Shown here: positions 1,149-23,816 of the stretch, one piece after another
Layout of the letters: each line of letters starts with the position of its first letter
How positions within the stretch are numbered: position 1 is the stretch's first letter
Assembly (NCBI RefSeq): GCF_000025945.1
Contig: NC_006138.1
Location: 270,001-302,000 of the forward strand
Reading direction: 5' to 3'
DNA from: Desulfotalea psychrophila LSv54
GTDB lineage: Bacteria > Desulfobacterota > Desulfobulbia > Desulfobulbales > Desulfocapsaceae
Length of the DNA stretch: 32,000 nt
Made by a program: the position numbers and the translations under genes
Notes under the pieces: model-generated
Seen by the model: the letters and a program-made list of their open reading frames with translations, nothing else
Told to the model about the DNA's origin: nothing
Databases searched by the model: none

Positions 1149-1159
1149 CGGCAGATCCT

Positions 1160-2257: not shown

Positions 2258-2267
2258 GCCAGACACC

Positions 2268-4850: not shown

Positions 4851-4923
4851 ATTATCTATTGTATGAGGCTTCCGGCCATTGGCCGGGGTCAGTAAGGCAG
4901 ACCCTGCACAGACTGACAGGAAT

Positions 4924-6045: not shown

Positions 6046-6058
6046 GGGGTCAACCAGA

Positions 6059-6762: not shown

Positions 6763-7116
6763 GAAGTGGGCTCATGATCGCCCCGACTTTCGCAGTCGGA
6801 GAGGAAAGTCCGAACTCCGCAGGGCAAGATGGTTCGTAACACGAACACTGGGTGACCGGTGGAAAGTGCCACAGAAAATAGACCGCCTGGTTCGCCAGGT
6901 AAGGGTGAAACGGCGAGGTAAGAGCTCACCGCTTTCACGGTGACGTGGAAGGCAGGGCAAACCCCATCTGGAGCAAGACCAAATAGAGAGATGTTTGAGG
7001 GCGGCTCCGTCCGAGATCTCCGGGTAGGTTGCAAGAGGCGTCGGGCAACCGACGTCCCAGTGAAATGATCATGGCTCCCTTCGGGGAGAGACAGAATTCG
7101 GCTTATAGCCCACTTC
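6763..7116 (+). ncRNA. rnpB: RNase P RNA, bacterial type A
   Basis: Conserved regions are readable directly: GAGGAAAGTCCG (CR-I), CACAGAAAATAGACCGCC, GGGTGAAACGGCGAGGTAAGAGCTCACC and ACAGAATTCGGCTTATAG. The P1 helix pairs GAAGTGGGCT (6763-6772) with AGCCCACTTC (7107-7116). A T8 run follows at about 7123-7130. Confidence 0.95.
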
Positions 7117-7169
7117 GCACATTTTTTTTCGTCTCAAAACAAGGAAACATCTCACCGCAAGACAGGAAA

Positions 7170-9534: not shown

Positions 9535-10974
9535 ATGTCACAGGTAAAAACATTATCCGCGTCCCAGGACTACCCCACCCACGAATGTGGTGTTTGCGGT
9601 ATTTTCGACCATGAAGATGCTGCAAAGCTCACCTACTTCGGCCTCTATGCCCTCCAGCACCGTGGCCAAGAAAGTGCGGGAATTGTTACATCAACCGGCA
9701 AAGAGGTCTTTCTTCACAAAGATATGGGACTTGTGCCCGAGATCTTTACCGAAGATATCCTGCAAGGACTTAAAGGGGACATGTCCATCGGCCATGTACG
9801 CTACTCCACCACCGGTGCGTCCAACTTCACCAATACCCAACCCCTGATGGTTCACCATAAGAACCAGACCCTCTCCGTTGCCCACAATGGCAACCTGGTG
9901 AACTCCACCGAGCTCAGAAACAGGCTCGAGGAGAGTGGTTCTATCTTTCAAACCACCATGGACTCCGAGGCCGTCCTCCATCTCATGGTACGCAACAGCG
10001 GTCCCGATCTCGATAAAACACTGAGCGAGACATTCCGTGCCCTCAAGGGTGCCTATTCCCTGCTCTATATGACCGAGGACACCCTCGTTGCCGTCCGTGA
10101 TCCCGATGGATTTCGCCCCCTCTGCCTTGGTCGCCTGACCACTGGCGGCTGGGTTATAGCCTCTGAAACCTGCGCCCTCGACCTCATCGAGGCCGATTAT
10201 GTACGTGATATCGAGCCGGGTGAAGTTCTTATCATGAAAAGAGGTGAGGAGATGCGCTCCATCTTCCCATGGCCAAAACAGACCCCGCACCACTGCATCT
10301 TTGAGCAGGTCTACTTTGCCCGTCCCGATTCCGATGTCTTTGGTATCAACGTCTATCAATCACGTAAGCAGATGGGTAAGATCCTGGCCCGCGAGGCAAA
10401 GATTGATGCCGATTTCGTTATGCCCTTTCCTGATTCCGGTAACTATGCGGCCATTGGCTATGCACAGGAATCCGGTATTCCCATGGAGATGGGCGTGATC
10501 AGAAATCACTATGTGGGCAGGACATTCATTGAACCAAGCCAGTCCATGCGTGACTTCAACGTCAAGGTCAAGCTCAACCCCGTACGATCTCTCTTGAAGG
10601 GAAAACGGGTTATCATCGTTGAGGATTCTATTATCCGAGGAACAACAGGTAAGAGTCGGGTACGAGCCCTACGCGAGGCGGGGGCCAAAGAGATCCACAT
10701 GGTGGTCAGCTGTCCTCCGACCATGCATGCCTGCTACTATGGCATCGATTTCCCAACCTCATCACAGCTCATTGCCTGCAATAAGAACGTCGAAGAAATC
10801 GCAGAATATCTGGGCCTGGACTCTCTCCACTACCTCAGCCTTGAGGGCATGGTAGAGGCAACGGGTATCCCTAAAGAGCACTACTGTCTGGCCTGTTTCA
10901 ATGGCATTTACCCCATCGCCCCTGATCAAAAATATCACAAAGACGCTCTGGCAACAAAGGTTGTCAAGGGCTAG
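9535..10974 (+). CDS. purF: amidophosphoribosyltransferase
   Basis: Ntn-amidotransferase N-terminus ...HECGVCGIF, a PRPP-binding loop VIIVEDSIIRGTT and C-terminal Cys residues for an FeS cluster. The ATG at 9535 has AAGGA 5-6 nt upstream. The alternative ATG at 9499 adds 12 aa. Confidence 0.9.
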   Translation: MSQVKTLSASQDYPTHECGVCGIFDHEDAAKLTYFGLYALQHRGQESAGIVTSTGKEVFLHKDMGLVPEIFTEDILQGLKGDMSIGHVRYSTTGASNFTNTQPLMVHHKNQTLSVAHNGNLVNSTELRNRLEESGSIFQTTMDSEAVLHLMVRNSGPDLDKTLSETFRALKGAYSLLYMTEDTLVAVRDPDGFRPLCLGRLTTGGWVIASETCALDLIEADYVRDIEPGEVLIMKRGEEMRSIFPWPKQTPHHCIFEQVYFARPDSDVFGINVYQSRKQMGKILAREAKIDADFVMPFPDSGNYAAIGYAQESGIPMEMGVIRNHYVGRTFIEPSQSMRDFNVKVKLNPVRSLLKGKRVIIVEDSIIRGTTGKSRVRALREAGAKEIHMVVSCPPTMHACYYGIDFPTSSQLIACNKNVEEIAEYLGLDSLHYLSLEGMVEATGIPKEHYCLACFNGIYPIAPDQKYHKDALATKVVKG

Positions 10975-10982
10975 AATAAATA

Positions 10983-11009
10983 CAGTACAGGGGGATGCCC
11001 CCTGTACTG
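10983..11009. terminator. convergent-gene hairpin, candidate bidirectional terminator
   Basis: Perfect 12-bp stem CAGTACAGGGGG / CCCCCTGTACTG with a 3-nt loop, between the purF stop (10972) and the regulator stop (11011). A T-rich tail (TATTTATT) is present only on the minus-strand side. Confidence 0.6.
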
Positions 11010-11010
11010 C

Positions 11011-11865
11011 TTATCTGCGAAAAACCACCGAATAGTCACCTGCAGCACGAGACTCCTCCATGGCCATTCTTGCCTTTTTGATCAACCTAAACTCGGCATC
11101 ATCTAAGTCCTCGTCCTTCTCAATGGAACAGGAAACGCATCCTATCGCCAGGGGCTGCTCACCAAAATTCTTCTCAAGATTCTGCAAGAGAACCCGTTGG
11201 ACGATCTCTGCGGCCTGATCGGCATTGGTTTCCGGCAGGAGAAGGGCAAATTCACGCTTTGTGCAACGACAGGCATGATCCACATAGGAACGGATAGAAG
11301 ACTTTAAAATCAAGCCAATCTCGGCAAGTTGTTCCTTCTCCACATCCTGCAAATAGAGCATGGCCAGATGCATGGGACGTTTTTGCCGCTGGGCACGTTC
11401 GAGTTCACGGGAGAGATGGACAAAGAAGGCGTTACCATCCTCAAGCCCCGTGGCCTCATCAAAATCAGCTATGAGCGAGAGTCTGTAGCGCAGAGCAGAT
11501 TCCCGCCTGGCCCGCTCAATTTTAAGCTCCAGCTCTCTTGCCATAACCGGCTCAGCAACAAAATCCAGGGCACCTCCCTCAACGGCAGCCACATAGACAT
11601 TCTCCTCGTCCGCCCCCACCAGAATGAGGCCAATGCTACGCCTTACCTCCCTCATGGCAATAAGCGCCTCCTCCTCTGCTCCTGCGGGCAGATGATCCAC
11701 CAAAAGGAGATCAACCCTTCTACTACGGGTCGCAACCAATGCCTCGGCATAGTCAACGGCAGTAATCACCCTATAGCCATATCCACGGACGAGCTCCTCC
11801 AAGTTTTTCCCCAGCAGCTCTTCCTCCACCACCAAGAGCAGCACAAATGACGCTTTGCCAATCAT
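11011..11865 (-). CDS. response-regulator-like protein with atypical receiver and degenerate GGDEF domain
   Basis: 284 aa; the ATG is preceded by AAGGAG. The N-terminal CheY-like fold has DLLLVD, and the C-terminal GGDEF-fold region reads RCTKREFALLLP where RxGGDEFxxLLP is expected. Confidence 0.65.
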   Translation of the reverse strand: MIGKASFVLLLVVEEELLGKNLEELVRGYGYRVITAVDYAEALVATRSRRVDLLLVDHLPAGAEEEALIAMREVRRSIGLILVGADEENVYVAAVEGGALDFVAEPVMARELELKIERARRESALRYRLSLIADFDEATGLEDGNAFFVHLSRELERAQRQKRPMHLAMLYLQDVEKEQLAEIGLILKSSIRSYVDHACRCTKREFALLLPETNADQAAEIVQRVLLQNLEKNFGEQPLAIGCVSCSIEKDEDLDDAEFRLIKKARMAMEESRAAGDYSVVFRR

Positions 11866-11919
11866 ATAAGGCTCCTTAATTCATTTTAAAGTCTTCTCTG
11901 TGCCAAGGAGAGAGCTTCC

Positions 11920-12126
11920 CTACTTCTTCTTCCTCGGATCATCTCCTGTTTCAAACATCTCAAAGAGATCATAAAAGAGGCGGGTTACAGCACTGTAGTG
12001 AGTGGCAGAGCCTGAGCTGGCATAGGCCTTAGTCAACTCCATGGCCTTAACAAAACTCTCCTGACTCTCCGCATCATCTCTCTTCTTAAGTGCTGCCACG
12101 AGTTTTTCTCCGACCTTCTGCTCCAT
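11920..12126 (-). CDS. hypothetical small acidic helical protein (68 aa)
   Basis: ATG at 12126 preceded by GGGAG (the track TTG start is at 12138). I recognise no motif. Coding is supported only by ORF, RBS and operon context. Confidence 0.4.
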   Translation of the reverse strand: MEQKVGEKLVAALKKRDDAESQESFVKAMELTKAYASSGSATHYSAVTRLFYDLFEMFETGDDPRKKK

Positions 12127-12165
12127 AACGACTCCCAAACCTTTTTGTTTTTTCAGGCCACTATT

Positions 12166-12492
12166 TTATGAAGAGAGTTGCCAGCCATCAAAGCGGGCCG
12201 CAATGCCCGAGAGCTCTGCCTGCCGATAGAGCGCCTGAAAGACCCCCTCCATCCTCGCCAGATGTTCTGTCGAAATTATCCCTGCCCGCTTCAGAACAAT
12301 GATCTGCCAGTCATGCCGGGCGGCATAGCGCCCGCACAGGACCCTACCCTCCTCGTCGGAGGCGGCAAAGACAATCATATTTACCAGACCAGCCTTCCAC
12401 CTCTGAGCCTCAAGGCTCTCAGCACCCGGGCAAACCTCATACTGATACCAGATGGCAGAGAGATTCTCTCCACAATTTTTTCCCGCCTGCAT
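12166..12492 (-). CDS. hypothetical protein (108 aa)
   Basis: ATG at 12492 preceded by GGAGG at about 5-nt spacing. No motif recognised. Confidence 0.45.
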   Translation of the reverse strand: MQAGKNCGENLSAIWYQYEVCPGAESLEAQRWKAGLVNMIVFAASDEEGRVLCGRYAARHDWQIIVLKRAGIISTEHLARMEGVFQALYRQAELSGIAARFDGWQLSS

Positions 12493-12595
12493 ATAACCTC
12501 CACCTCTATGATAAAATCATATCATAAGACAAGATCTCTGTTTTACATAAATAAAAATTTAGAGCGCAGGACGCAAAGAGGCAGCAGAAAGGGGT

Positions 12596-12621
12596 TCCCT
12601 CTCCGTGAAAAAAGAGAGGGA
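12596..12621 (-). terminator. weak hairpin after xdhC (possible operon end)
   Basis: 8-bp stem TCCCTCTC / GAGAGGGA with a 10-nt loop, 14 nt downstream of the xdhC stop on the minus strand. The U-tract (CCCCTTTCTG) is poor. Confidence 0.25.
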
Positions 12622-12634
12622 GGGGGGAAAAAGC

Positions 12635-13651
12635 CTAGAGAAGGGTCTTGGCCCGAACACCAATAAGCTCTGCGGCTATACTAACGGAGATCTCCTCGGG
12701 GGTCTGAGCACCGATGGTCAGACCGATGGGAGAGTGGCAACGATCAATATTCGCCTGAGAAACGCCATCGGCCAACAGGGCGTCGTAGATGGCATTTCGT
12801 TTCTTCTTACTGCCAATCATACCGATATAGCGAGCATCGGTCTTCAGGGCATCTCCCAGAACAGTCAGATCATGGACATGCCCACGGGTAACAATGATGA
12901 TATAGGCATCTTCAGGGATGGAGAGATCGGTACAGCAATCCTCAAAGCTAGCGAGGACACGCACCTCATCAACGGTGGGGAAGCGTTCTACATTGGCAAA
13001 ATCATCTCGATCATCAAGGACCACCGTGCGAAAGCCAAGCATGGCTCCTACCCGGGCAGTAAAGAGGGAGACATGACCGGCACCAAAGATATAGAGCGGA
13101 GCCGGCGGGATAAAGGGTTCGGCAAAGCAGAGCTCCGTTTCGGACTTACTAAAACATGGACTCTCCTTCTCCATGGCCTGTCCGGCCAGGGCAGAGTAGT
13201 CCCCAAGCATCACCTCATGTCCTACGGAGCAAAGAGAATCCCCCTTGGAAAAGGTGGTAGAGAGAACCGCTCTCTCACCCCGGCGCAGCAGGCCATCCAA
13301 CTCCCGATAGGCCAGGGCGCAGGGACCGGTGGACTCAATGGTCTCCAGGAGGACCGAGAGATTACCACCACAGATCATATCTGAGTTAGCGGCCATCTCC
13401 TGGTCCATATCGGTAAAGGTAAGTTCTGCTCGACCATCCTTACAATCCTCAAGCATTCGGCGGGCATCACGACAGGCGATGGCCTCCACGATACCACCGC
13501 CGATGGTACCAATGGCAGTGTGCTGGGCTCGGACAACCATCTTCGCCCCCGAGGAACGCGGGGTAGAGCCGGAGCTCTCTAAAACAGTGGCAAGTACACA
13601 GGGTTCACCCTGCTCAATAAGTTCACACAGGGAACGGACAAAGGCCTTCAT
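12635..13651 (-). CDS. xdhC: XdhC/CoxI-family Moco-insertion accessory protein
   Basis: 338 aa. The N-terminal XdhC_CoxI-type segment reads CVLATVLESSGSTPRSSGAKMVV, and the C-terminal Rossmann-like LYIFGAGHVSL is present. The ATG lies 3 nt after the ligase stop, with GGAGAG upstream. Confidence 0.85.
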   Translation of the reverse strand: MKAFVRSLCELIEQGEPCVLATVLESSGSTPRSSGAKMVVRAQHTAIGTIGGGIVEAIACRDARRMLEDCKDGRAELTFTDMDQEMAANSDMICGGNLSVLLETIESTGPCALAYRELDGLLRRGERAVLSTTFSKGDSLCSVGHEVMLGDYSALAGQAMEKESPCFSKSETELCFAEPFIPPAPLYIFGAGHVSLFTARVGAMLGFRTVVLDDRDDFANVERFPTVDEVRVLASFEDCCTDLSIPEDAYIIIVTRGHVHDLTVLGDALKTDARYIGMIGSKKKRNAIYDALLADGVSQANIDRCHSPIGLTIGAQTPEEISVSIAAELIGVRAKTLL

Positions 13652-13654
13652 AGA

Positions 13655-14956
13655 TTATCTCTCCTCATCTATCTGTAGACAGCGTTTGGCCAAACCGGGA
13701 ACAGCCGGCCTGCCGTCGTTTTTTATCTCAATACTTATTTGCAAGGAACCTAACTCAATGGCCCGGAAAATAGTAGGTATCTTTTTCAGGGCAACTCTTA
13801 TGGCAGACTCAAGGCTACCCCCTCTTCCACAGGCCAGGATTCCCAAGCGACCGGGAGCAAGCGATGCACTAAAATCCGCCAGACCAGCAACGGAGTAGAG
13901 AGCCTCGTTCAACTCATCTATTGTCAGTAAAGGCGAAGAATCTTGGGGCAAACGACGAATCCAGGGATCAAGGCGGCGACTGGTACTGCCACAGGGGCAG
14001 GTGTCAGCCAGAATACGACCCAGATCTCCGCTCCGATAACGAATCAGGGGCATGCCCCATCGCTGCAGGGTGGTCAGCACCAATTCGCCAAATTTACCGT
14101 CGGGCAAGGGCTGGCCTGTCTCTGGATCGGTGATCTCTAAAAATATATCGGCCTCCCGCAGGTGCATACCCGAATGGGGGGCACACTGGACGGCACCGCC
14201 AAGACCGGTTTCAATCATGCCCCAGTGCCGATAGGCTCGGCAGCCCCAGATTCTCTCGATATTATGGACAACGGCGGTGGAGGGGGCATCCCAGCAGAGG
14301 AGGACCGAGGCAATTTGGCCATGCCCAAGACCACGCCTGGCCCACTCACAGGCAAGCAGATTAAGATGGGCGGCAGGCCCAATGACACAATCCGCATCCA
14401 CCTGGAGGAGGTGGTCGACGGCTGCTGCCACCTCATCCACCATTCCATGGGAGACGATGTGCACCCCGCGTCGTTCAAGTCCCTCAACGAGAAGACGACC
14501 CACCCCGCCCGGACGGGCTGTGGGCATAAGGAGAAAGGCGGTCTGCCCGGCCGCAACCAGATGAGCCATGCCCGCATCAAAGTAGTCCACCGTTGCCTGC
14601 AGATCACTCTCCGTATAGAAGATGCGCTTAGGGGCACCGGTGGTCCCGGAACTCTGCACGGTCACCGCCCGGGCAATCTCATCCTGAGAGACACAGAGAA
14701 ACTGCTCCGGGCCAGCCCGAAGGTCATCGGCCGTAACCCGGGGTAGGGCCGAGAATGCCTGAAGGCTATCAAGACTTTCCAGCTCAAGGCCGGCAAAATG
14801 GCGGCGATAAAAGGGGCTCTTCTCCCGGGCATGCAGGATCGTCTTCTGCAGATATTTCAGCTGCCAGGCACTCATCTCCTCTGCCGTGGGCGCGCTGCTC
14901 TCCTCCGACATACCCATACGCCTGAGGAGAAGTCGATCAAGATGGGATAGGGCCAT
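13655..14956 (-). CDS. PaaK/F390-synthetase-like adenylate-forming (acyl-CoA) ligase
   Basis: It has the SSGTTGAPKRIFYT P-loop and PaaK-like length. The track start at 14986 overlaps the radical SAM gene by 50 nt. The ATG at 14956 has GAGGA 7 nt upstream (20-nt overlap). ATG 14917 or 14911 are alternatives. Confidence 0.75.
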   Translation of the reverse strand: MALSHLDRLLLRRMGMSEESSAPTAEEMSAWQLKYLQKTILHAREKSPFYRRHFAGLELESLDSLQAFSALPRVTADDLRAGPEQFLCVSQDEIARAVTVQSSGTTGAPKRIFYTESDLQATVDYFDAGMAHLVAAGQTAFLLMPTARPGGVGRLLVEGLERRGVHIVSHGMVDEVAAAVDHLLQVDADCVIGPAAHLNLLACEWARRGLGHGQIASVLLCWDAPSTAVVHNIERIWGCRAYRHWGMIETGLGGAVQCAPHSGMHLREADIFLEITDPETGQPLPDGKFGELVLTTLQRWGMPLIRYRSGDLGRILADTCPCGSTSRRLDPWIRRLPQDSSPLLTIDELNEALYSVAGLADFSASLAPGRLGILACGRGGSLESAIRVALKKIPTIFRAIELGSLQISIEIKNDGRPAVPGLAKRCLQIDEER

Positions 14957-16286
14957 TGCATTTTCCTCGATACAGGGTCTCGCCATCCATTGAGGTCAGG
15001 TTATAGGCGCAAAAGGGAATGAGGCGACCGTCTGGAGAGACCACATGGATACAGCACCCCCGCAGCCTCTCAAAATCAAGGGTCCAGGCATCCTGAAAGG
15101 CCATGGCCGAAATGGCCAGGCTATGGCTGGCGGCCCGACTGATAAATCTTCCCAAATCATCCTCTAGCGCCCCGGCCATGGGTAAACTCTGCTTGACTCC
15201 GGCCCACTGCCGCTTAACAAAGGATTTAGCCTTATCGGCCCCCTCTCTGGCTGGCCTGGGAGCACAGTCACACTTGCCTCCGGCGGAGAGCTTTGTCAGC
15301 CCACCCTCCTCGGTGACCATATAGTTGCCATTAAAGGAACAGTGAGAGTGTTCACAGCCCGGAGGTTGAAAATCCGCAGCATGAACAGCACCACCGCTCT
15401 GGACCTCAAGCAGGTCCATCAGCTCCGGCAGGGTGATACGCTCTTCATCCCCGGGCGCCTGCGGATATCTGCCAAAATAGCTGACCGGCTGAAAATGAAC
15501 CCCCCGCACATGGGGAGAGTTCTGCACAGCCAGATCAAGGATTGCCCCCAAATTATGATCATTCAAGCCCGGCACCACCACGGGTACCAGAACAATACCA
15601 ATTCCGGCCTGAGAGAGGGCCTCAATAGCTGCCCTCTTTTCTGCCATGAGGGGACGACCTCGCAGACTGCTATAGATGGCATCTTCGGTGCCATCAAACT
15701 GAAGAAAGACGGAATCAAGGCCCGCCTCGGCCAGCCTCTGAGCATAACCCTCTTCACGGGCAATACGCAGACCATTGGTATTGAGCTGAATAAAGGGAAA
15801 GCCCCTCTTTTTAGCCAGGGCAATGAGCTCCGCCAGATCATCACGCATGGTGGGCTCACCACCAGAGAGCTGAATATTACAAAAGCCCGAAGCAAGCTCC
15901 ACCCGCTCCAGCAGTTGAGAAATTTCTGCCTGACTGGGATCGGGAGCAGCCTTCTTGCCAGAGGAGGCAAAACAGACGGGACAACCCAGATCACAGCGCC
16001 AGGTCACCTCAAGAAGAGCAGTGCAGGTGTGCTGACCATGAGCGGCACAGAGGCCACAGTCATAGGGACAGCCCCTGTCCACCGCAGTAAAAGGGGTCTT
16101 AGGCTGGGAAGGAATCTTGGTCCGGGACCACTCCTTAAAGGAAGTACCGGCTCGCCAAACTACCGTTTTAAAAGCACCATGCTCAGGACACTCCTTCAAC
16201 AGATAGGTATTGCCCTCAATAGTTTCATGGTGAGCGGGGATAGCCTTCAAGCAAACGGGACAGACACTTCTAGCGATGGAGTTCAT
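14937..16286 (-). CDS. radical SAM enzyme with N-terminal Zn-ribbon and extra Cys clusters
   Basis: The CX3CX2C motif is RCDLGCPVCF (C98/C102/C105). N-terminal CPVC...CPEHG is followed by GCPYDCGLCAAHGQHTC, and C-terminal Cys pairs occur (GCEHSHC, KCDC, GCC). The ATG overlaps the upstream stop as ATGA. Confidence 0.85.
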   Translation of the reverse strand: MNSIARSVCPVCLKAIPAHHETIEGNTYLLKECPEHGAFKTVVWRAGTSFKEWSRTKIPSQPKTPFTAVDRGCPYDCGLCAAHGQHTCTALLEVTWRCDLGCPVCFASSGKKAAPDPSQAEISQLLERVELASGFCNIQLSGGEPTMRDDLAELIALAKKRGFPFIQLNTNGLRIAREEGYAQRLAEAGLDSVFLQFDGTEDAIYSSLRGRPLMAEKRAAIEALSQAGIGIVLVPVVVPGLNDHNLGAILDLAVQNSPHVRGVHFQPVSYFGRYPQAPGDEERITLPELMDLLEVQSGGAVHAADFQPPGCEHSHCSFNGNYMVTEEGGLTKLSAGGKCDCAPRPAREGADKAKSFVKRQWAGVKQSLPMAGALEDDLGRFISRAASHSLAISAMAFQDAWTLDFERLRGCCIHVVSPDGRLIPFCAYNLTSMDGETLYRGKCNGPIPS

Positions 16287-16738
16287 AAAAGTTCACGCCC
16301 CTCTGTCGGATCACAGCCATTATCAAGCAAGATCTCCCGGACCCGGCCATGGGCATCAGCTAACAGGGAGCCACAGAGAGAGGTATTCATCTGCGGCGTA
16401 CTACCATCAAGAATATCAAGGCAGCGGATACCTGCATGGGCGCTGGTTCTGCTTACAAACCACTGAGCAAACTCTTCCAGCATAAGGGCAAGTTTACCAT
16501 CGGCCTGCTCCATGGCAAGCCCCTTACCTGCATAAAGGCCCAAAAGCAGATTGGCTCCGGCATAGACTCCGCAGGGGCCGGTACCGTCTCCCATGCCATT
16601 ACAGAAACCCGAGGCCGCCCGGACCAGATCCGGATTTTCCCGATCCATCTCATCCAGGGCCAGCAGGACCATGATCTGGGTACAGCAATAACCCTGCGCA
16701 CCTAACTCCATAACTTGCATTCCAATATCATCTAACAT
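16283..16738 (-). CDS. C_GCAxxG_C_C-family putative redox protein
   Basis: 151 aa with N-terminal GYCCTQ, central GPCGVYAG (a GCAxxG-type motif) and two distal Cys (IRCLD, SLCGS). The ATG abuts the upstream TAG, with AGGAGG inside the upstream gene's last codons. Confidence 0.75.
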   Translation of the reverse strand: MLDDIGMQVMELGAQGYCCTQIMVLLALDEMDRENPDLVRAASGFCNGMGDGTGPCGVYAGANLLLGLYAGKGLAMEQADGKLALMLEEFAQWFVSRTSAHAGIRCLDILDGSTPQMNTSLCGSLLADAHGRVREILLDNGCDPTEGRELL

Positions 16739-17386
16739 CTACTCCTCCTTTTTTTGCCCAACCAATAAATAGTAACCGAGCTGAGGCTGACCGCAGTTGC
16801 ACGCCTGTTCCTCTCCACCGGCAAAGAGAAGCCGGGCCGCCAGTTGATGAAGGAGACGGGAATGATCCTCTACCAAAAGCAGGCGAAAGCCCGCCGCCTC
16901 TACAATCGCCTCTGTTTGCGCCCGGGGCAGGGCCCTGACCGCGCAGGAGGTCCCCCCCGCAGGGTCTCCATGACCACAGAGATCGGAGAGGAGAAGAAAA
17001 GCACCGGGTTGCAGCACCCTGTTAAACTCTGCCAGGCCCTGCTCCGCATCCGGGAAGAGGGAGAGGACACATTCACAAAAGAGGGCCCGAAAAGAGGAGG
17101 AGAGAAAGGGAAGATCATCCCCCCAGGCCTGGACCTGCCCCGTACCACGACCACGCTTAAGCTGAGTCCAGGAGGGCTCTACCCCATGGGCCATGGCTCC
17201 ATAACGCGCGCGCAGACGCTCGACGGTGGCACCAAGGCCACTGCCCACATCAAGAACGGGCCAACCAGGAGCCAGCCCCACAAAGTCCGCGGCCCTATCT
17301 GTTATGGTAAACCCGCCCGGGCGCAGGGTATCCCCGGCAGCCAGGCGAAGCAGTGGCTGTTCCCAGAGAGGTACTGACTGCACCAC
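16739..17386 (-). CDS. class I SAM-dependent methyltransferase
   Basis: Motif I is VLDVGSGLGATVERL and the length is 215 aa. The GTG start lies 1 nt after the upstream stop, with GGAGGA 8 nt upstream. Confidence 0.8.
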   Translation of the reverse strand: MVQSVPLWEQPLLRLAAGDTLRPGGFTITDRAADFVGLAPGWPVLDVGSGLGATVERLRARYGAMAHGVEPSWTQLKRGRGTGQVQAWGDDLPFLSSSFRALFCECVLSLFPDAEQGLAEFNRVLQPGAFLLLSDLCGHGDPAGGTSCAVRALPRAQTEAIVEAAGFRLLLVEDHSRLLHQLAARLLFAGGEEQACNCGQPQLGYYLLVGQKKEE

Positions 17387-17387
17387 C

Positions 17388-17603
17388 CTACTTATCCTCC
17401 AGCAGATGCTCTACCTGATTCATCTTGCCACCGGCCAGACTCTCGGAGATAAAAACCATATTACACTGGGGACATACCGGCAGGGCAACGTTAAAGAGAG
17501 AGTCGAGATACTCTAACTCCACCGGTTTATAGACCAGATCTACCCCACAGGCCGAACATTTCCAACCAGCCGCATCGGCTTCCGCTACCTTAATTAAACT
17601 CAT
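17388..17603 (-). CDS. small CxxC...CxxC zinc-ribbon protein (71 aa)
   Basis: It has KCSACG and CPQC pairs 25 residues apart. The ATG overlaps the upstream TGA (ATGA), so it appears translationally coupled. Confidence 0.6.
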   Translation of the reverse strand: MSLIKVAEADAAGWKCSACGVDLVYKPVELEYLDSLFNVALPVCPQCNMVFISESLAGGKMNQVEHLLEDK

Positions 17604-19846
17604 GCCTGACCTCCTCTGATACGCATACGATGACTCCAGGTATTATGGACAAGATAGCCCTCAGCCAGCCTCTCAAACTCCACCCAATAGGTGACCAGGG
17701 TGGGTCGATAGGAGGCGAGCAGATGACCTGTCTCACTGTGAACAAAGGCCTTGCCGCTCTCCTCGACCTGAAGCAGGACCTTTTGCATGTCCGATTTTAG
17801 AATTCGACGCTCCTCCATGATCCTCTCCGCCTCCTCGGTAAAGAAGACCTGCACCTGAGAAAAACGCTCCACCCTGCTGGTATCCTCCTCGGCCCAGAGA
17901 TCTTGCAAGAGCCCCTCCTTCAGATGGGCACGATTCTCTCGACGGGCAGAAAAGCCCGGAGAGGGACGTCCGGCAGGATCGCTCTCACTTGGAAAAATAA
18001 GGTCATAAAAGTGCATGGCCCGTTTACCATTTTTGACCAGCATATCACGGCACATGGCACAGTAGGTGACAAAATCCTCCTCCACCGCTGCCCCACGACG
18101 AACAGCCACAGCCTTTGCCAGATCAGGATTAGCATCGGAGAGGAGACCACCATAGCCACAACACTCGGTATGCTTGCCGGTCAGCCGAGGTTCCACCACC
18201 TCGATAGAGAGGTCCTGCAAGAGGGCACGCACATCTCCCTGCAGAAGGGGGTCATGCCGGGCTGAACAGGGATCGTTGATTGCCAGGGTAGCGGCCTCAA
18301 CCCTTGCCCCTGCGGGCAGGCCAAGGGCACGAAGAATGGTCCAGTGAGAAATTATCTCCGCCTCGGGGATACCAGCCCGTAGGGTAGTAAGACAGGTGGG
18401 GCAGGAGACAATAATTTGGGGAGAGCCGAGTTCCTGCCACTGCTCCCGAATCAGGGCCATGGACTCATCCATCAGGGCCTTACGTCCGGACCACTCGGCG
18501 GGTGCACCACAGCAGGAGAGCATAAGACCAACGCTACCCAAACGATCACGCAGATCCTGATAGGCCCGCTCCACCGCCCCAGGATTTGAAGCAGTCAGCT
18601 GACAGCCGGGAAAAAAAAGATACTCACTGCTCACCATGCCCGGGGCATGACGAACCAAGGCGCACTTCTTGCCATTGGCAAAGGCCATGTCGCGCAGGGC
18701 AAATTCATGGGCTGCCGGTGGCATCTTATTCTTTTCCACCATCCCCCGCCGGATAGTCAGACAAAAATCAGCCATGGAAAACTCTTCGGGACAGAGGGTA
18801 TCGCAGAGACCGCAGAGCATACAGGAGTTAACCATGGTATTGGCCTGACGAGTCCCCATAACAATGGCATCATTGTTATAGGCCTGACGGGCATAGACCT
18901 TGGGATAATATTTATAGTGTTTCAGATACTCACAGTTCTTAACGCACTCCATGCACTCGCACTGCAGACAGCGTTTGGCCTCGGCCCGAATCTCTTCATC
19001 GCTGTAACTTGCCTGAACAATAAGGGCGGGCACCGATTCAACATCCTCGACATTGGTATAGAGCCTTGTCTGATAGGGGCCCTCCAGCTCACGGCCTGCC
19101 ACCATGGAGACACCTTGGGTAAAGCGTACAATGGAGTTGGCGGCACGACGACCGGTGGCCGCCTGGAATATAGCCGAATCCTCAGCACAGGGAGAGGCAA
19201 AGAGACCCGGACGTAGGGTGCCCAAGGTCAGACTATCCGCTTCACCCCAAGAGGAAAGCTCCGAGGGCAGACTGTCTGAATCGACAAAGACGGCATCTGC
19301 CTCGGCAAGAAGGGCGTCGAGCAAAACCTGATCAATGCTGACATCGTGAAAACTCACCCCCAGACGGGCAAGATTTTTTATCTCAGCGGCGAGAACACCC
19401 TCGGGCAGGGAAAGAGCCAAAACCTTACCAGGCTCACCGTAGAGCCTTACCGCAAAACCTCTACGGGCCAATTCCCAGGCAGCGCAGAGACCGGTCAGTC
19501 CTGCCCCCACCACTGCCACCACCTTACCACGGGCGGGCAGAGGCCTGGGCGGATCAACAGCCCGGGCATTTTCAGCACAAAATTCCTCCAGGGAATCCAT
19601 GGCAATACTGCCACCCAAACCCTGACGAATACAATCATTTTTACAGGGACCATGACAGAGTCGTGCCAGGACACCCGGCAGGGGTAGGGTTTTGGCAAGC
19701 ACCGTCCAGGCCTTGTCCCAACGCCCCTGCCCCATCAAGGAGCAGAAACTACGCACATCCACATGAAGGGGGCAGGCTGCGGTACAACGAGGCACCTCTT
19801 CCTGCACACATTTTGCTTCCCATTCTCTGAGTTCACTCTGTTCCAT
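17600..19846 (-). CDS. multidomain flavo-iron-sulfur oxidoreductase (GltD-like N-terminus + Rossmann + 2x[4Fe-4S] + two CCG domains + unknown C-terminal domain)
   Basis: Motifs seen are CTAACPLH...CHGPCKNDC, VAVVGAGLTGLCAAWELARRG, CLQCECMECVKNC, CMLCGLCDTLCPE, FFPGCQL...SCCGAP and ECCGYGG. The track start at 19897 is TTG. The ATG at 19846 has GGGAGGGAG upstream. Confidence 0.8.
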   Translation of the reverse strand: MEQSELREWEAKCVQEEVPRCTAACPLHVDVRSFCSLMGQGRWDKAWTVLAKTLPLPGVLARLCHGPCKNDCIRQGLGGSIAMDSLEEFCAENARAVDPPRPLPARGKVVAVVGAGLTGLCAAWELARRGFAVRLYGEPGKVLALSLPEGVLAAEIKNLARLGVSFHDVSIDQVLLDALLAEADAVFVDSDSLPSELSSWGEADSLTLGTLRPGLFASPCAEDSAIFQAATGRRAANSIVRFTQGVSMVAGRELEGPYQTRLYTNVEDVESVPALIVQASYSDEEIRAEAKRCLQCECMECVKNCEYLKHYKYYPKVYARQAYNNDAIVMGTRQANTMVNSCMLCGLCDTLCPEEFSMADFCLTIRRGMVEKNKMPPAAHEFALRDMAFANGKKCALVRHAPGMVSSEYLFFPGCQLTASNPGAVERAYQDLRDRLGSVGLMLSCCGAPAEWSGRKALMDESMALIREQWQELGSPQIIVSCPTCLTTLRAGIPEAEIISHWTILRALGLPAGARVEAATLAINDPCSARHDPLLQGDVRALLQDLSIEVVEPRLTGKHTECCGYGGLLSDANPDLAKAVAVRRGAAVEEDFVTYCAMCRDMLVKNGKRAMHFYDLIFPSESDPAGRPSPGFSARRENRAHLKEGLLQDLWAEEDTSRVERFSQVQVFFTEEAERIMEERRILKSDMQKVLLQVEESGKAFVHSETGHLLASYRPTLVTYWVEFERLAEGYLVHNTWSHRMRIRGGQA

Positions 19847-19868
19847 AGTCTCCCTCCCACAAATAAGT

Positions 19869-19909
19869 ACAGGTAGTGACCTGTGCCAAATGCACAAACC
19901 ACTACCTGT
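19869..19909 (-). promoter_or_regulatory. intercistronic composite hairpin between aor and the accessory operon (attenuator, 3'-stabiliser or operator candidate)
   Basis: Perfect 10-bp inverted repeat ACAGGTAGTG (19869-19878) / CACTACCTGT (19900-19909) encloses a second 5-bp stem TGTGC/GCACA with a 5-nt loop. On the minus strand it is followed by ACTTATTTGTGGGAGGGAGACT-ATG. Confidence 0.45.
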
Positions 19910-20003
19910 CTTTTAACACCAGCTGAGGACCTCTCATAAACCTCTGAAAAGCCCTCAAATAGGGAAGCAGCAAATTAATTATCTACCTCCCTCTGCCTAT
20001 AAT

Positions 20004-22724
20004 CTACTTAGCCTGCAGACCTGCAAGAATCTTCTCAGGCAGGGCAGGAAGCTTAGTAATACGTACGCCACAGGCATTGTAGATACCATTAATAATGGCC
20101 GCATGAGGCGCAGTAAGTGGCAGCTCGCCACAACCAGATGCGCCAAATGGACCCTCGGGACGGGCAGTCTCGATATACTCAACTTCAATATCATCAGGGA
20201 TGTCCTTGATGTATGGAAAGCCAGCACCTTTCATGGTGGAGTGCTTCTTGATATCTTCGTAGTCCTCGGTGAGGGCCAGGCCAATACCCTGGGCAAGTCC
20301 ACCGTACATCTGACCATCAACGATCAATCTATTGTTGATCTTACCTACATCGGCAATCAAAGTCATCTTCTCAGCGGAAGCTTTACCGGTTTTCATATCC
20401 ACTGCCATCTCGGCAAGGAACATACCGTACATATAACAGGCAAAAGGATTACCCTGACCATTGGCATCACACTCGGTGGCAGGAGCGGTCCACTTGCCAT
20501 TATAACGAACAGGTTTTTCTGCCTCAACCATCTCGGCATAGGTCGAGAAGGTGTCCGCAGTTTTGCGCATAGCTTCAACAAGGGCATCACAACCTGCCTT
20601 AATAGCGCGACCAATAATAACCTGAGAACGGCTACCACCAGCAGGGCCACCATTGCCACAGGTACTGGTATCGTTCATAACCAGTTTAATCTGATCAGGG
20701 GTGAGACCAAGAGGACGAAGTGCCTCGTGAGCCGTACCCAAAACGCCCATATCAGCGCCCTGACCATGGTCATGCCAACAGGCAAAAACGGTTACGGTAC
20801 CATTTTCATTGAGCTCAACGTCGATTTCAGCGGTATCAGGGCCGTCAAGACCGGAACCATAAATACCGAGGGAGATACCAACACCGCGCTTGATCTCGTC
20901 GGTGGAGTTAGCAGCAACACGTTTCTTAGCTGCCTCATATTTTGGTCGCATGGTATCAAAGATCTCAGGAAGTGAATACACCTCAGGTTCCTGACCAGTT
21001 GGGGTAGTAGAACCCTTGCGATAGATATTCTTATAACGAAGATCAAAGGGGTCCATACCGATCTTCTCAGCAAGCTCATCCATCAATACCTCAGATGGAA
21101 ACTCTGTTTCAGGGGCGCCATAACCACGGAAGGCAGAGCCCCAGGCATGGTTGGTGGCAACACAACGACCATCACCGCGAATATTAGCAATATCGTAACC
21201 TGCACCAATGTACTGGGCACCACGGAGGGTGAGCAGATCACCGAACTCAGAGTAAGGACCATGATCAACAGTCCAATCAGTCTCCATTCCGAGAAGTTTA
21301 CCATCGTTATCGGCAGCCATACGCACGTTGGTGAAAAATGGAGAACGCTTACCGGTATAGGTTTGCTGTTGTTTCCAGGTGTAGTTCAAGAAAACAGCCT
21401 TGCCAGTGGCAAGACAGGCGGCACCAACCAGGGCTTCCATGGTTGGGGAGAACTTGTAACCAAAGGTACCCCCGGTGGCATTCTGAACCATAACGATGTT
21501 CTCAGGCTCAACACCAAGACCTGGAGCGATCATATAGAGATGGAGATGGAGACCAATGGATTTAGTGTGAATACAGAGTTTTCCCTCATCGTTCATAAAG
21601 GCAAAACCAACATCCGGCTCAAGAGGCATATGTGGTTGACGACCAACATAAAAATCATCCTCAACAACATGAGCTGCTGCCTCAAAGATAGGAGCAGTCT
21701 CGGCACCCTTGGCAACGTGTTGCTCAAAGTAGATATTAGGAGTTCCAGGATGAATCTCGATGGCATCATCTGCCATGGCAGCAGGAGCACTCATGTACTC
21801 AGGCAGACGTTCGAGCTCAACCTTAACCTTGGCAGCAGCAGCCTTGGCATGTTTATCGGTATCGGCACAGACGATGGCAATGGCATCACCGTACTGAAAG
21901 ACCTTCTCATCACAGAGGATAGGACGATCCCAACCATCACCCTTATTGGTGGGGAAGGTGATCAGGCCGGTAATACGGTTCTTACCTTTAACGTCCTTAT
22001 GGGTAACAATCTTCTCAACACCGGGCATTTTCTCTGCTTCGCTGGTGTCGATGGAGAGAATCTTAGCATGGGAAACCTCGGCTTGAACCAGGGCAAGTTG
22101 CAGGGTTCCAGCAGGCATCTTCAGGCCAAGGTCAGCACCAAAATCGAGGGTACCGGTTACCTTAGAGACTGAACTTGGACGTGGATATCTGGTGCCCCAG
22201 ATGCGACCATCCTCAGGAATCTTAAAGTACAGATCATTAATATCCTTATCACCACGCATAACCGCGGCAGCATCGCGAACGGCATCAACGAGTTGCTTGT
22301 AGCCTGTACAGCGACATGCATTGCGGTTTTTTTGGAACCAGTCACGAACATCATCACGGCTAGGGTTAGGATTGGATTCAATCAAGGCATAGGTAGAAAC
22401 GATGAATCCAGGTGTACAGAAACCACACTGGGCGCCACTATGGGCAATCCAGGCAACTTGAATAGGGTGGAGGTGATTTGGAGTTCCAATTCCCTCTACG
22501 GTGGTAATTACTGCATCGTTTTGCATTCGTTTCATCTTCATGGTACAAGATCGAACCAACTTGCCATCAAGAATAATAGTACAGGTACCACATTGGCCAG
22601 TACCACAACCAATTTTCACACTGGTAAGGCCCAGATTATCACGCAGTACATTGGCCAGAGATTCGTCCTTATCACAGACCACAGACTTGGCGATACCGTT
22701 AACCTGGAGATTAAGCTTAATCAT
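20004..22724 (-). CDS. mop: molybdenum aldehyde oxidoreductase, Mop type (2x[2Fe-2S] + Mo-pterin domains, no FAD domain)
   Basis: By my recollection it is collinear over its full length with Desulfovibrio gigas MOP. Motifs present are GCGTGQCGTCT, CGFCTPGF, CRCTGY, GGTFGYK and GASGCGELPL. The ATG at 22724 (MIKLNLQVNG) is preceded by AGGAGG and gives 906 aa. The track start at 22775 is further upstream. Confidence 0.92.
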   Translation of the reverse strand: MIKLNLQVNGIAKSVVCDKDESLANVLRDNLGLTSVKIGCGTGQCGTCTIILDGKLVRSCTMKMKRMQNDAVITTVEGIGTPNHLHPIQVAWIAHSGAQCGFCTPGFIVSTYALIESNPNPSRDDVRDWFQKNRNACRCTGYKQLVDAVRDAAAVMRGDKDINDLYFKIPEDGRIWGTRYPRPSSVSKVTGTLDFGADLGLKMPAGTLQLALVQAEVSHAKILSIDTSEAEKMPGVEKIVTHKDVKGKNRITGLITFPTNKGDGWDRPILCDEKVFQYGDAIAIVCADTDKHAKAAAAKVKVELERLPEYMSAPAAMADDAIEIHPGTPNIYFEQHVAKGAETAPIFEAAAHVVEDDFYVGRQPHMPLEPDVGFAFMNDEGKLCIHTKSIGLHLHLYMIAPGLGVEPENIVMVQNATGGTFGYKFSPTMEALVGAACLATGKAVFLNYTWKQQQTYTGKRSPFFTNVRMAADNDGKLLGMETDWTVDHGPYSEFGDLLTLRGAQYIGAGYDIANIRGDGRCVATNHAWGSAFRGYGAPETEFPSEVLMDELAEKIGMDPFDLRYKNIYRKGSTTPTGQEPEVYSLPEIFDTMRPKYEAAKKRVAANSTDEIKRGVGISLGIYGSGLDGPDTAEIDVELNENGTVTVFACWHDHGQGADMGVLGTAHEALRPLGLTPDQIKLVMNDTSTCGNGGPAGGSRSQVIIGRAIKAGCDALVEAMRKTADTFSTYAEMVEAEKPVRYNGKWTAPATECDANGQGNPFACYMYGMFLAEMAVDMKTGKASAEKMTLIADVGKINNRLIVDGQMYGGLAQGIGLALTEDYEDIKKHSTMKGAGFPYIKDIPDDIEVEYIETARPEGPFGASGCGELPLTAPHAAIINGIYNACGVRITKLPALPEKILAGLQAK

Positions 22725-22799
22725 GAATTGTATTCCTCCTAAGTGTTTCATTGCCTTGCATGTTACGACCATCAAGATGAGGCACGTAACTCAAAAATA

Positions 22800-23816
22800 C
22801 TACTTTCCAAAGGGGCAGGTGGGATAATGGCACACTTCACATGTTGCACAAAAACCACCATGTCCCATGGCTACAATATCTTCACGGGTAACCTCAACCC
22901 CTGCCAGCAGACGGGGCACAACCAGATCAAAAATACTGGCCCGATAGTACATAACGCAGCCTGGGAGTCCCAGAATCGGGATACCGTCCCTGACTGCGAG
23001 CATAAACATCACGCCAGGAAAAGTGGGAGAACCATATGTAATAACCTCGGCCCCGGTGGCTCGGATTGCGGTGGGGGTCTGGTCGTCGGGATCAACGGAC
23101 ATACCGCCTGTCACCACCACCATTTCAGCGCCTTCAGCAATGGCATCTAAAATCTCATCACGGGTCATGATGGGATCATCTGAGCTGAACCGTTGCTCCA
23201 TAACCGTGGAACCGAGTTTTGCAAATTTTTCACGAATAACAGGGCCGAACTTATCCTGAATACGACCGTGATAGACCTCGCTGCCCGTGGTTACCACACC
23301 AACTTTATGGTGGATAAAGGGACGGATGCCGACCACGTAGGGATATTCAGCACATATTGCCTCCACACGCTCAATCTTCTCCTCATCTATAACAAGGGGA
23401 ACAACCCTGGTGCCGGCAACGGCTCGGGCTTCGGTCACCTGCTGGCCACTGTGCATGGTGGCAAGCACGACCTCCTCAATGGAGTTAATACGATTGAGGG
23501 CTTCAACATTGATATCAAGCAGACCGGGACTGGCCTCAAAGTTCACTCGACCTTCGCTGACGTCGGAAAGGGTAATACCGGGACCAAAGGCTGCCTTGGC
23601 GATACGCTCGGCTGCCTCGTTTTCATGAATGCGGCCTTTTTCCATATCCAATACAAAAATATGTTCTTTGCCAATTTCAAGCAGGGTGGGAATATCTTCT
23701 TCAGTTACAACATGACCCTTCTTAAAGGCAGGTCCCTTGCACTCTCCGGGAACAATTCTGGTCATATCATGGCATAGAACCATGCCAATAGCTTCTTGCA
23801 CAGGAACAGTATTCAT
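22800..23816 (-). CDS. molybdopterin-binding (MoCF_biosynth / MoaB-Mog-like domain) protein with Cys-rich C-terminus
   Basis: The central segment VGVVTTGSEVYHGRIQDKFGPVI...VVTGGMSVDPDD is typical of the MoCF-binding fold. The C-terminal tail is FCATCEVCHYPTCPFGK. The track start at 23912 is TTG. The ATG at 23816 (MNTVPVQEA) has GGAGAG upstream. Confidence 0.7.
   Translation of the reverse strand: MNTVPVQEAIGMVLCHDMTRIVPGECKGPAFKKGHVVTEEDIPTLLEIGKEHIFVLDMEKGRIHENEAAERIAKAAFGPGITLSDVSEGRVNFEASPGLLDINVEALNRINSIEEVVLATMHSGQQVTEARAVAGTRVVPLVIDEEKIERVEAICAEYPYVVGIRPFIHHKVGVVTTGSEVYHGRIQDKFGPVIREKFAKLGSTVMEQRFSSDDPIMTRDEILDAIAEGAEMVVVTGGMSVDPDDQTPTAIRATGAEVITYGSPTFPGVMFMLAVRDGIPILGLPGCVMYYRASIFDLVVPRLLAGVEVTREDIVAMGHGGFCATCEVCHYPTCPFGK

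Follow-up and report, generated by a model that had tools for sequence, protein, structure and literature searches.

The 32,000-nucleotide stretch of Desulfotalea psychrophila LSv54 analyzed here (contig NC_006138.1, positions 270,001 to 302,000 of the forward strand; hereafter the window) carries on its minus strand a chain of genes around mop, which encodes a Mop-type molybdopterin-dependent aldehyde oxidoreductase (AOR). The chain is read here, with a confidence slightly better than even, as the D. psychrophila copy of a widely conserved Mop-centered cluster composed of three layers: one for catalysis and electron exit, one for loading of the molybdenum (Mo) cofactor, and one in which the radical S-adenosylmethionine (SAM) enzyme TrsS, a ligase and a methyltransferase would generate a product. 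The neighborhood is not a new discovery, as it is already curated by NCBI, with its synteny encoded in the names of the models. Direct observation at this and related loci covers family memberships, synteny, gene fusions, motif conservation and fold similarity. In window positions, from upstream to downstream, the features are as follows.

22800-23816, minus strand: gene for a MoCF-binding protein (338 aa; MoCF_biosynth domain, molybdopterin-binding), upstream of mop
20004-22724, minus strand: mop, Mop-type molybdopterin-dependent aldehyde oxidoreductase (906 aa)
19847-20003, minus strand: structured intercistronic spacer (157 nt; main hairpin 19869-19909)
17600-19846, minus strand: gene for a 748-aa Fe-S/flavin-type protein (NF045663)
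17388-17603, minus strand: gene for a 71-aa zinc-ribbon protein of the DVU_1557 family (CxxC...CPxC; NF045645)
16739-17386, minus strand: class I SAM methyltransferase gene of the DVU_1556 family (215 aa; GTG start)
16283-16738, minus strand: gene for a C-GCAxxG-C-C protein of the DVU_1555 subfamily (151 aa)
14937-16286, minus strand: gene for the radical SAM enzyme TrsS, Cys form (449 aa; NF045646)
13655-14956, minus strand: gene for a PaaK-like adenylate-forming ligase of the DVU_1553 family (433 aa)
12635-13651, minus strand: gene for an XdhC-family Mo-cofactor insertion chaperone of the AOR-associated subfamily (338 aa), which closes the coupled unit

The intergenic distances from the MoCF-binding protein gene to the XdhC gene are, in order, +75, +157, -4, +1, 0, -4, -20 and +3 nt, and the gene order, the six tight junctions and the 157-nt spacer with its hairpin that an earlier note had described from the bare sequence agree to the base in all coordinates. 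Shine-Dalgarno-like GGAGG or GAGGA motifs lie 5' of most of the starts, and the beginnings of the NCBIfam profile alignments agree with the chosen start codons. Overlapping and abutting junctions are common in bacterial operons, so the junctions alone are unremarkable. Recurrence of this gene order in other phyla does exceed chance, and the status of the genes as a unit rests on genome comparison.

For eight of the nine proteins of the chain, the score lies above the curated cut-off of an NCBIfam model; these models evidently derive from the same synteny (the nine relevant ones are NF045645, NF045646 and NF045663-NF045669). The eight are Mop (NF045668, 1682.9 bits against a cut-off of 1100, residues 3-904), the 748-aa protein (NF045663 'diclust_near_Sec', 987.8 bits, cut-off 530), the 71-aa protein (NF045645, 97.2 bits, cut-off 60), the methyltransferase (NF045667, 200 bits, cut-off 155), the C-GCAxxG-C-C protein (NF045669, 158.3 bits, cut-off 103), TrsS (NF045646, 681.9 bits, cut-off 490), the ligase (NF045666, 433 bits, cut-off 300) and XdhC (NF045664 'aldehyde oxidoreductase maturation factor', 406.8 bits, cut-off 350). 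The Pfam domain assignments agree with those of NCBIfam, and the PGAP annotation already names the D. psychrophila proteins after these families. The names DVU_1553, DVU_1555, DVU_1556 and DVU_1557, which the earlier note had given, thus correspond to existing families whose cut-offs the window proteins pass; the DVU_1551 nucleoside triphosphate (NTP) transferase that it had also named exists as a family (NF045665) and follows XdhC elsewhere, but is not encoded in the window. The gene order is that of the D. vulgaris-type cluster, with eight of the nine families of the full DVU_1551-1559 type present; the D. psychrophila copy differs from the curated AOR/TrsS neighborhood in missing NF045665 and the CobC-like phosphatase that is likewise canonical elsewhere, and in having the Cys rather than the selenocysteine (Sec) form of TrsS. 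In a 2026 review (PMC13188914), TrsS is attributed to Haft and Tolstoy (2025, mSystems 10:e0141724) and listed among the families from their selenoprotein-neighborhood paper, and four of the genes were remarked on in a 2017 transcriptome paper on C. ljungdahlii (PMC5640608). Literature searches for DVU155x locus tags, or for AOR together with radical SAM and XdhC, found nothing useful.

Conservation across genomes was followed from two seeds. The TrsS-seeded set came from a TrsS alignment scan of one genome per GTDB species, from which the best 80 of at least 598 relatives were taken; 62 of these loci, having at least 7 kb upstream and at least 3.5 kb downstream, were evaluable. The Mop-seeded set comprised 80 metagenome loci (Mop 60-83% identical), with 34 evaluable at 8.5 kb or more of downstream sequence. 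Among the evaluable TrsS loci the ligase gene is the most constant neighbor of TrsS (59 of 62), and the two form the tightest pair in the module; the other counts are 51 for the methyltransferase, 50 for the 71-aa protein, 49 for the C-GCAxxG-C-C protein, 47 each for the 748-aa protein and full-length Mop, 38 for XdhC and 22 for the MoCF-binding protein, with mop truncated at the locus boundary in two further cases (L038, L044). All seven genes from mop to the ligase are found in 39 of the 62 loci, collinear and on one strand in 35, and the loci are distributed over Desulfobacterota, Bacillota (including Clostridium, Acetobacterium, Desulfosporosinus, Sporomusa and Pelosinus), Chloroflexota, Acidobacteriota, Campylobacterota (Sulfurospirillum) and Alphaproteobacteria. 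From the Mop side, 30 of 34 loci have the 748-aa, 71-aa, methyltransferase, C-GCAxxG-C-C and ligase genes, and TrsS is encoded in 27, plus two in which it is split into pieces; one locus (L111) holds fragments only and another (L157) is without methyltransferase and TrsS. The co-occurrence check that the earlier note had proposed is therefore positive in both directions. The module is not tied strictly to Mop, 12 of the 62 evaluable TrsS loci being clearly Mop-less.

The Mop-less variant loci differ in their contexts. In L035 the module lies beside a tungsten-type aldehyde:ferredoxin oxidoreductase (AFOR), a 4Fe-4S protein and an NAD-type aldehyde dehydrogenase. In L040 the usual place of Mop is taken by an 809-aa protein (L040:5488-7917) in which a plant-type Fer2 domain, like that at the Mop N-terminus, is joined to a molybdopterin domain of the dimethyl sulfoxide (DMSO) reductase family, followed by the genes for the 71-aa protein, methyltransferase, C-GCAxxG-C-C protein, TrsS, ligase and MoeA. 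A different DMSO-reductase-family enzyme, with no MoeA, is found in L057, and other xanthine-oxidase-family subunits lie near TrsS in L006 and L036. In loci of a Dehalococcoidia or Syntrophales type, the 748-aa protein is represented by its dicluster and CCG part, with its C-terminal ~85-aa domain encoded separately as a small protein, and the ligase, the methyltransferase and one or two TrsS copies are retained; these loci have neither Mop nor XdhC, are mostly without the 71-aa and C-GCAxxG-C-C genes, and sometimes include a major facilitator superfamily (MFS) transporter, which borders three of the Dehalococcoidia-type loci. Gene dosage varies as well. One locus (L048) has two mop genes with a single accessory set, and in C. 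ljungdahlii the genes for AOR, FAD/CCG protein, 4-Cys protein and C_GCAxxG_C_C protein occur as a set twice in tandem, the first set being up-regulated on syngas and/or H2/CO2 (PMC5640608). These arrangements fit the 748-aa, 71-aa and C-GCAxxG-C-C proteins as stoichiometric partners of Mop, with TrsS, ligase and methyltransferase acting catalytically.

Mop itself contains, by Pfam, Fer2, Fer2_2, Ald_Xan_dh_C, MoCoBD_1 and MoCoBD_2 only, that is, two [2Fe-2S] domains and the Mo-cofactor domains with no flavin adenine dinucleotide (FAD) domain. It matches the solved structures over its full length (1DGJ, 1462 bits; 1SIJ/1VLB, 1412 bits) and is collinear with 1SIJ and 1DGJ across 900 residues, making it a full-length orthologue, with the same domain order and equally FAD-less, of D. 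gigas MOP (1VLB/1SIJ) and D. desulfuricans MOD (1DGJ). Forty years of work have treated those enzymes as stand-alone, and an accessory operon is not raised in the review of the field; the review notes the missing flavin module and names flavodoxin as a merely putative partner, and describes an unusual sulfido-free Mo site, unexplained activation chemistry and a broad substrate range (D. gigas AOR review).

A possible electron acceptor is encoded by the gene that always follows mop. The 748-aa protein (Pfam Fer4_20, NAD_binding_8, Fer4_17 and CCG) consists of a GltD/NfnB-like 2x[4Fe-4S] domain, one Rossmann domain (GAGLTG), a ferredoxin-type dicluster, two HdrB-type CCG motifs and a C-terminal domain of ~85 aa. 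Both CCG motifs (residues 415-485 and 527-599) are complete, with spacers of 29/35 and 34/32 residues that lie slightly outside the classical CX(31-39)CCX(35-36)CXXC, and their cysteines are invariant in the 25 homologues from which an AlphaFold2 (AF2) model was built (predicted local distance difference test, pLDDT, 85.6). In Foldseek searches with this model, the protein resembles the large subunits of NfnABC/StnABC, EtfD and, over its N-terminal ~200 residues, GltD/NfnB, and the CCG half resembles LutA (TMt 0.69) and HdrB (TMt 0.54); no solved single chain matches end to end, the best TM being 0.38. The protein thus has two full CCG motifs and a dicluster, as do HdrB/HdrD, LutA and EtfD, and shares the N-terminal 2x[4Fe-4S] domain with NfnB/GltD-type flavoproteins, but differs from all of these in its single small Rossmann domain and its C-terminal domain. 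The latter is an alpha/beta domain (residues ~660-745; 17600-17860, minus strand) with a conserved motif of roughly VTYWVEY...Y.V..AYSHR, to which no Pfam model matches; it is also encoded as a free-standing protein of 87-102 aa in Mop-less loci (e.g., L061:8652-8915).

The neighboring 71-aa protein belongs to PF24292 (DUF7479) and ends in LEDK in 106 of 109 locus homologues (codons 17391-17402 in the window). A phmmer search run exhaustively against 1.84 billion cluster representatives returned 151 matches; the best 150 include 119 with EDK and 136 with Lys as the C-terminus. The two proteins are linked by in-frame fusions of the 748-aa type with the DVU_1557 domain (L033, L045, L089, L115, P0316, P0322) and, in L035, by fusion of a zinc ribbon of the 71-aa type to the C-terminal ~85-aa domain alone. 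The DVU_1557 domain is always at the extreme C-terminus, also in the ~690-940-aa fusions.

Cofactor handling is represented by several genes. XdhC carries both the XdhC_CoxI and XdhC_C domains and, with NF045664 above its cut-off, bears out the earlier assignment of an XdhC-family protein to the operon. The MoCF-binding protein matches PF00994 (83.8 bits, residues 173-303) and no NCBIfam equivalog above cut-off, and its homologue lies directly upstream of mop in 21 of the 34 Mop-seeded loci. Elsewhere (L002, L014, L030, L012, L007) the cluster continues past XdhC with the NF045665 transferase, a MocA-like protein with an HD domain (396-437 bits, cut-off 315), and a CobC-like histidine phosphatase that scores just below the alpha-ribazole phosphatase cut-off and is fused to the NTP transferase in L012. 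The combination of nucleotidyl transferase, phosphohydrolase domain and phosphatase hints at cofactor chemistry of the nucleotide-loop type. Firmicutes loci have a sigma-54-dependent activator at the end of the cluster.

Such genes raise the possibility that all seven products serve cofactor maturation or tailoring, acting on the Mo cofactor or the Mo site of Mop to provide a modified pterin dinucleotide or an extra Mo ligand, perhaps in the manner of the accessory genes of Mo-Cu CO dehydrogenase or the selenium-dependent molybdenum hydroxylases; we consider this rather unlikely. It is favored by XdhC within the operon and a molybdopterin-binding protein upstream of it, by the MocA-like/HD transferase and the phosphatase that bring the canonical cluster to four cofactor-handling genes in total, by the other pterin enzymes beside Mop-less TrsS loci (L035, L040, L057, L006, L036), and by the sulfido-free Mo site and unexplained activation of the D. 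gigas enzyme. Those known systems, including XdhC/PaoD-type maturation, do resemble the present cluster in having a dedicated XdhC chaperone beside the enzyme and extra Mo-site genes, but are without radical SAM enzyme, PaaK-like ligase, methyltransferase, C-GCAxxG-C-C protein and HdrB-like protein. An objection comes from L071, the best substitute for the D. gigas locus (a query with D. gigas MOP residues 1-400 gave only partial metagenomic proteins), which carries most of the module, with no XdhC homologue detected, and encodes a Mop 92% identical over residues 5-401 to the crystallized D. desulfuricans enzyme 1DGJ. The 1DGJ and D. gigas structures reportedly contain ordinary molybdopterin cytosine dinucleotide. 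In addition, the Dehalococcoidia-type loci examined, except L057, show no molybdoenzyme nearby, the duplicated sets of mop, FAD/CCG, 4-Cys and C_GCAxxG_C_C genes suggest stoichiometric partners rather than maturases, and an HdrB-like catalytic site lacks an obvious role in cofactor assembly.

The protein that the earlier note had called a Zn-ribbon radical SAM enzyme is indeed a radical SAM enzyme, and can now be placed more precisely as TrsS, a full-length homologue of the tetraether synthase GDGT-MAS/Tes (PDB 7TOL, E 1.3e-84). The four metal-site motifs of GDGT-MAS are all present at the level of sequence motifs: the rubredoxin-type site C9x2C12x20C33x2H36, the N-terminal cluster cysteines C73/C77/C80 and the radical SAM motif C98x3C102x2C105 are kept, with residue numbers identical to those in the GDGT-MAS paper (PMC9433317), and the C-terminal CCIH...PFC region is shared, M395 aligning with the labile Met439 of the C-terminal cluster. 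In GDGT-MAS, the substrate carbon-sulfur bond forms at the cluster bearing this Met439 (PMC9433317). TrsS differs in having an invariant Cys/Sec311 (PPGCEH motif; codon 15354-15356 in the window) that has no counterpart in GDGT-MAS and is revealed as a Sec position by an in-frame TGA aligned to this codon in L053 and L118. A role as pterin methylase, to which the Pfam name 'HMPTM' pointed, was rejected, as the GDGT-MAS structure paper overturned the MJ0619 annotation behind it (PMC9433317). Additional forms of TrsS include a TrsS-DUF5714 fusion in a Desulfosporosinus metagenome-assembled genome (MAG; L037:9971-12148), tandem duplicates around 10001-12754 in two Chloroflexota/Dehalococcoidia MAG loci (L061, L074), and three TrsS with two ligase copies in a Clostridiales locus (L075).

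Its homology to GDGT-MAS, and the proposal that bacterial Tes homologues are synthases of branched glycerol dialkyl glycerol tetraethers (brGDGT), which are palaeoclimate lipids (PMC8941075), might suggest that TrsS is a bacterial synthase of membrane-spanning or branched tetraether-type lipids and that the cluster serves lipid-tail chemistry, with the ligase and methyltransferase activating and branching fatty acids. This is scarcely credible. TrsS scores 349.3 bits against the Tes model NF045702, below the cut-off of 450, with residues 6-323 alone aligning; the segment matching the second lipid pocket of GDGT-MAS is ~40 residues shorter and poorly aligned; Cys/Sec311 is specific to TrsS; and the conserved neighbors in its bacterial, molybdoenzyme-linked context are a molybdoenzyme, a chaperone and soluble redox proteins, with no lipid genes.

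The ligase that accompanies TrsS has a conserved SSGTTGxPKR motif, and its nearest characterized relatives, also in the PDB, are phenylacetate-coenzyme A (CoA) ligases (4R1L, 2Y27). On this basis the cluster could be thought to encode a catabolic or detoxifying route for one particular aldehyde, in which Mop would form the acid, the ligase its CoA thioester, TrsS and the methyltransferase would alter the carbon skeleton, and the Fe-S proteins would dispose of the electrons. The pairing of the module in L035 with a tungsten AFOR and an NAD-type aldehyde dehydrogenase, the MFS transporters at three Dehalococcoidia-type loci, and the sigma-54 activator at the end of the Firmicutes loci, which is of the catabolic-operon kind, are in keeping with such a route. 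However, no thiolase, hydratase, dehydrogenase or other downstream catabolic gene is conserved in the cluster, the cluster includes XdhC and further cofactor genes, such a scheme has no place for three small or Cys-rich proteins with invariant features, and the substrate range of Mop is broad (D. gigas AOR review), so that a catabolic role appears quite unlikely.

The methyltransferase (Pfam Methyltransf_11/25) has a family-conserved Cys105 in an 'EC' motif just past SAM motif I and a second, less conserved Cys near residue 148, ~43 residues further on. The pair is reminiscent, in a tentative alignment, of the arsenic-binding cysteines of ArsM. The C-GCAxxG-C-C protein (PF09719) has four family-invariant cysteines (19, 56, 106, 122), and no solved relative was found in the PDB. 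A role in metalloid or organometallic methylation (As, Se, Te, Hg), with aldehyde oxidation merely supplying the radical SAM enzyme with low-potential electrons, is a further alternative and a highly unlikely one. Aldehyde oxidation is a very low-potential electron donor; below threshold, the methyltransferase weakly resembles ArsM-type models and selenoprotein methyltransferase fusions; a selenoprotein fusion family is weakly matched by the C-GCAxxG-C-C protein; and TrsS is a selenoprotein in some genomes and is placed with selenoprotein-neighborhood families (PMC13188914). The similarity to the ArsM-type models nevertheless amounts to 30-41 bits against cut-offs of 240-263, which leaves the protein outside ArsM, and no ArsM structure is among its PDB matches; no arsenic or mercury resistance genes were seen in the loci, and XdhC ties the operon to Mop and not vice versa.

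Between mop and the 748-aa gene lies a structured, non-coding spacer. Its main hairpin (19909-19869), with 18 bp in the stem and 5 nt in the loop, is followed by ACTTATTTGT (a weak T-run) and ends 22 nt short of the start codon of the 748-aa gene; the minimum free energy of the 157-nt RNA is -69.9 kcal/mol (z = -7.97 against 200 shuffles). A structured non-coding gap at this position is found in all 92 loci in which both mop and the 748-aa gene are complete (46-374 nt, median 94.5), in most cases with a high stability of -0.3 to -0.55 kcal/mol per nt. An Rfam search of the spacer and upstream region detected no Moco riboswitch and no other family, and a search for sigma-54 promoters gave nothing above chance. 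From its sequence and position, we infer that the spacer may act as a read-through attenuator or a 3'-stabilizing hairpin permitting Mop to be made in excess over its helpers. GC content at third codon positions (GC3) is 0.45 in mop, resembling the HtpG and PCMT genes, and 0.53-0.61 in the seven genes downstream; the low value of mop probably reflects codon bias linked to high expression, not foreign origin. Horizontal transfer, which the GC profile and the closeness of TrsS to Pseudodesulfovibrio had brought into consideration, was dropped because the GC3 of the seven genes matches that of other window genes, only mop being lower.

The LEDK end, the fusions, the mapping of Sec to Cys311, the mapping of GDGT-MAS metal sites, the variant contexts and the conserved structured spacer were not found reported, Haft and Tolstoy (2025) lying outside that comparison.

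Taken as a cluster of three layers around Mop, the genes suggest the following scheme. Mop would oxidize aldehydes, and the 748-aa protein encoded next to it would be the dedicated electron acceptor that the FAD-less enzyme needs, working alongside the 71-aa zinc ribbon that is sometimes fused to its C-terminus. At the HdrB-like CCG site a thiol/disulfide couple may then take up the electrons, the candidate substrate being either the C-GCAxxG-C-C protein with its four cysteines or a small thiol compound. XdhC, aided by the MoCF-binding protein, would insert molybdopterin cytosine dinucleotide into Mop, and the MocA-like NTP transferase and the phosphatase may join in cofactor loading where they are encoded. 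TrsS, the ligase and the methyltransferase are candidates for making or installing an alkyl- or thiol-type group by chemistry like that of GDGT-MAS, where H abstraction at an unactivated carbon is combined with a carbon-sulfur(cluster) intermediate (PMC9433317). The ligase would provide an activated carboxylate, and the invariant LEDK C-terminus of the 71-aa protein would be an attractive acceptor or tether. Of these steps cofactor loading is held with most confidence, followed in descending order by the 748-aa and 71-aa proteins as electron acceptor, thiol/disulfide turnover, the product of TrsS, ligase and methyltransferase and, last, the LEDK tether. The earlier note's guarded view of the genes as a maturation, tailoring or dedicated electron-transfer module, a function that we likewise infer, is consistent with all of these findings.

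Several points weigh against the three-layer scheme. Its functional steps, including the route of the electrons and the targets of TrsS, ligase and methyltransferase, are deduced from family, synteny and fold. Coupling of the 748-aa protein to NAD(P) is uncertain, since the Rossmann part of the modeled protein is just one small domain, and a single-sequence AF2 model of the C-GCAxxG-C-C protein was unusable (pLDDT 45). The product of the ligase may simply be a CoA thioester. The TrsS proteins of the 12 Mop-less loci score 536-648 bits, above the cut-off of 490, and are genuine family members; TrsS is encoded with no other module genes nearby in L037, L065, L070 and L078, and Mop orthologues without the module within 10 kb occur in L099, L112, L119 and possibly L085. 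The persistence of the TrsS-ligase pair in Dehalococcoidia-type loci without the 71-aa protein means that the LEDK tail is not the universal substrate of the two enzymes, which weakens the tether step in particular.

The boldest extension of the tether step would make the 71-aa protein a new type of carrier, an idea to which we give little credence. The ligase would load an acid onto the C-terminal Lys or activate the terminal carboxylate, TrsS would thiolate an unactivated carbon of the tethered chain in the manner of LipA, by the carbon-sulfur(cluster) chemistry of GDGT-MAS, the methyltransferase would cap or tune it, and the resulting protein-bound thiol arm, which by analogy would be lipoyl- or coenzyme-B-like, would cycle at the CCG site. 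Two known systems invite the comparison, and both are analogies only. The LysW amino-group carriers are likewise zinc ribbons with a conserved, acidic C-terminal tail, but that tail ends in Glu (EDWGE) and their ligase is of the ATP-grasp type, in place of LEDK and a PaaK-like ligase, and the 71-aa protein falls outside LysW. In lipoyl assembly the ligase LplA is combined with radical SAM sulfur insertion by LipA; the 71-aa gene, too, lies with genes for an adenylate-forming ligase (PaaK-like rather than LplA-like) and for a relative of GDGT-MAS, in which a carbon-sulfur(cluster) adduct forms.

Outside the gene chain, XdhC is followed by a 142-nt gap, two small open reading frames (ORFs) and a GGDEF response regulator. 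The two ORFs (108 and 72 aa), directly 3' of XdhC at 11920-12492 on the minus strand, match nothing in Pfam or NCBIfam and are without homologues in the 160 fetched loci, and the sole strong terminator-like site past XdhC is at 11010-10982. A class A RNase P RNA (RF00010, 303.8 bits) at 6762-7121 on the plus strand overlaps the mechanical TTG start (7029) of an IspDF ORF (7029-8330), so the true ispDF start is probably further downstream. At 78-6496 on the minus strand, Pfam domains indicate a menaquinone-type biosynthesis block comprising an AMP-binding ligase, a MenC-like member of the enolase superfamily, a MenB-like enoyl-CoA hydratase, a MenD-like thiamine pyrophosphate (TPP) enzyme, a MenF-like chorismate-binding protein and a 4HBT thioesterase.

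Present knowledge of the cluster is a catalogue entry rather than a function. If surveys of brGDGT genes pick up TrsS, its molybdoenzyme-linked context argues for a different activity and for its exclusion from the gene counts. The Mop of Desulfovibrio is a textbook molybdoenzyme whose electron acceptor, natural substrate, sulfido-free Mo site and activation are still questions (D. gigas AOR review), and the nine- to eleven-gene cluster offers concrete candidates in the Fe-S/CCG partner, the dedicated XdhC and the trio of radical SAM enzyme, ligase and methyltransferase, whose genes can be deleted in genetically tractable sulfate reducers. Should the 71-aa protein prove to be a carrier, Mo-dependent aldehyde oxidation would be coupled to heterodisulfide-type chemistry in bacteria.

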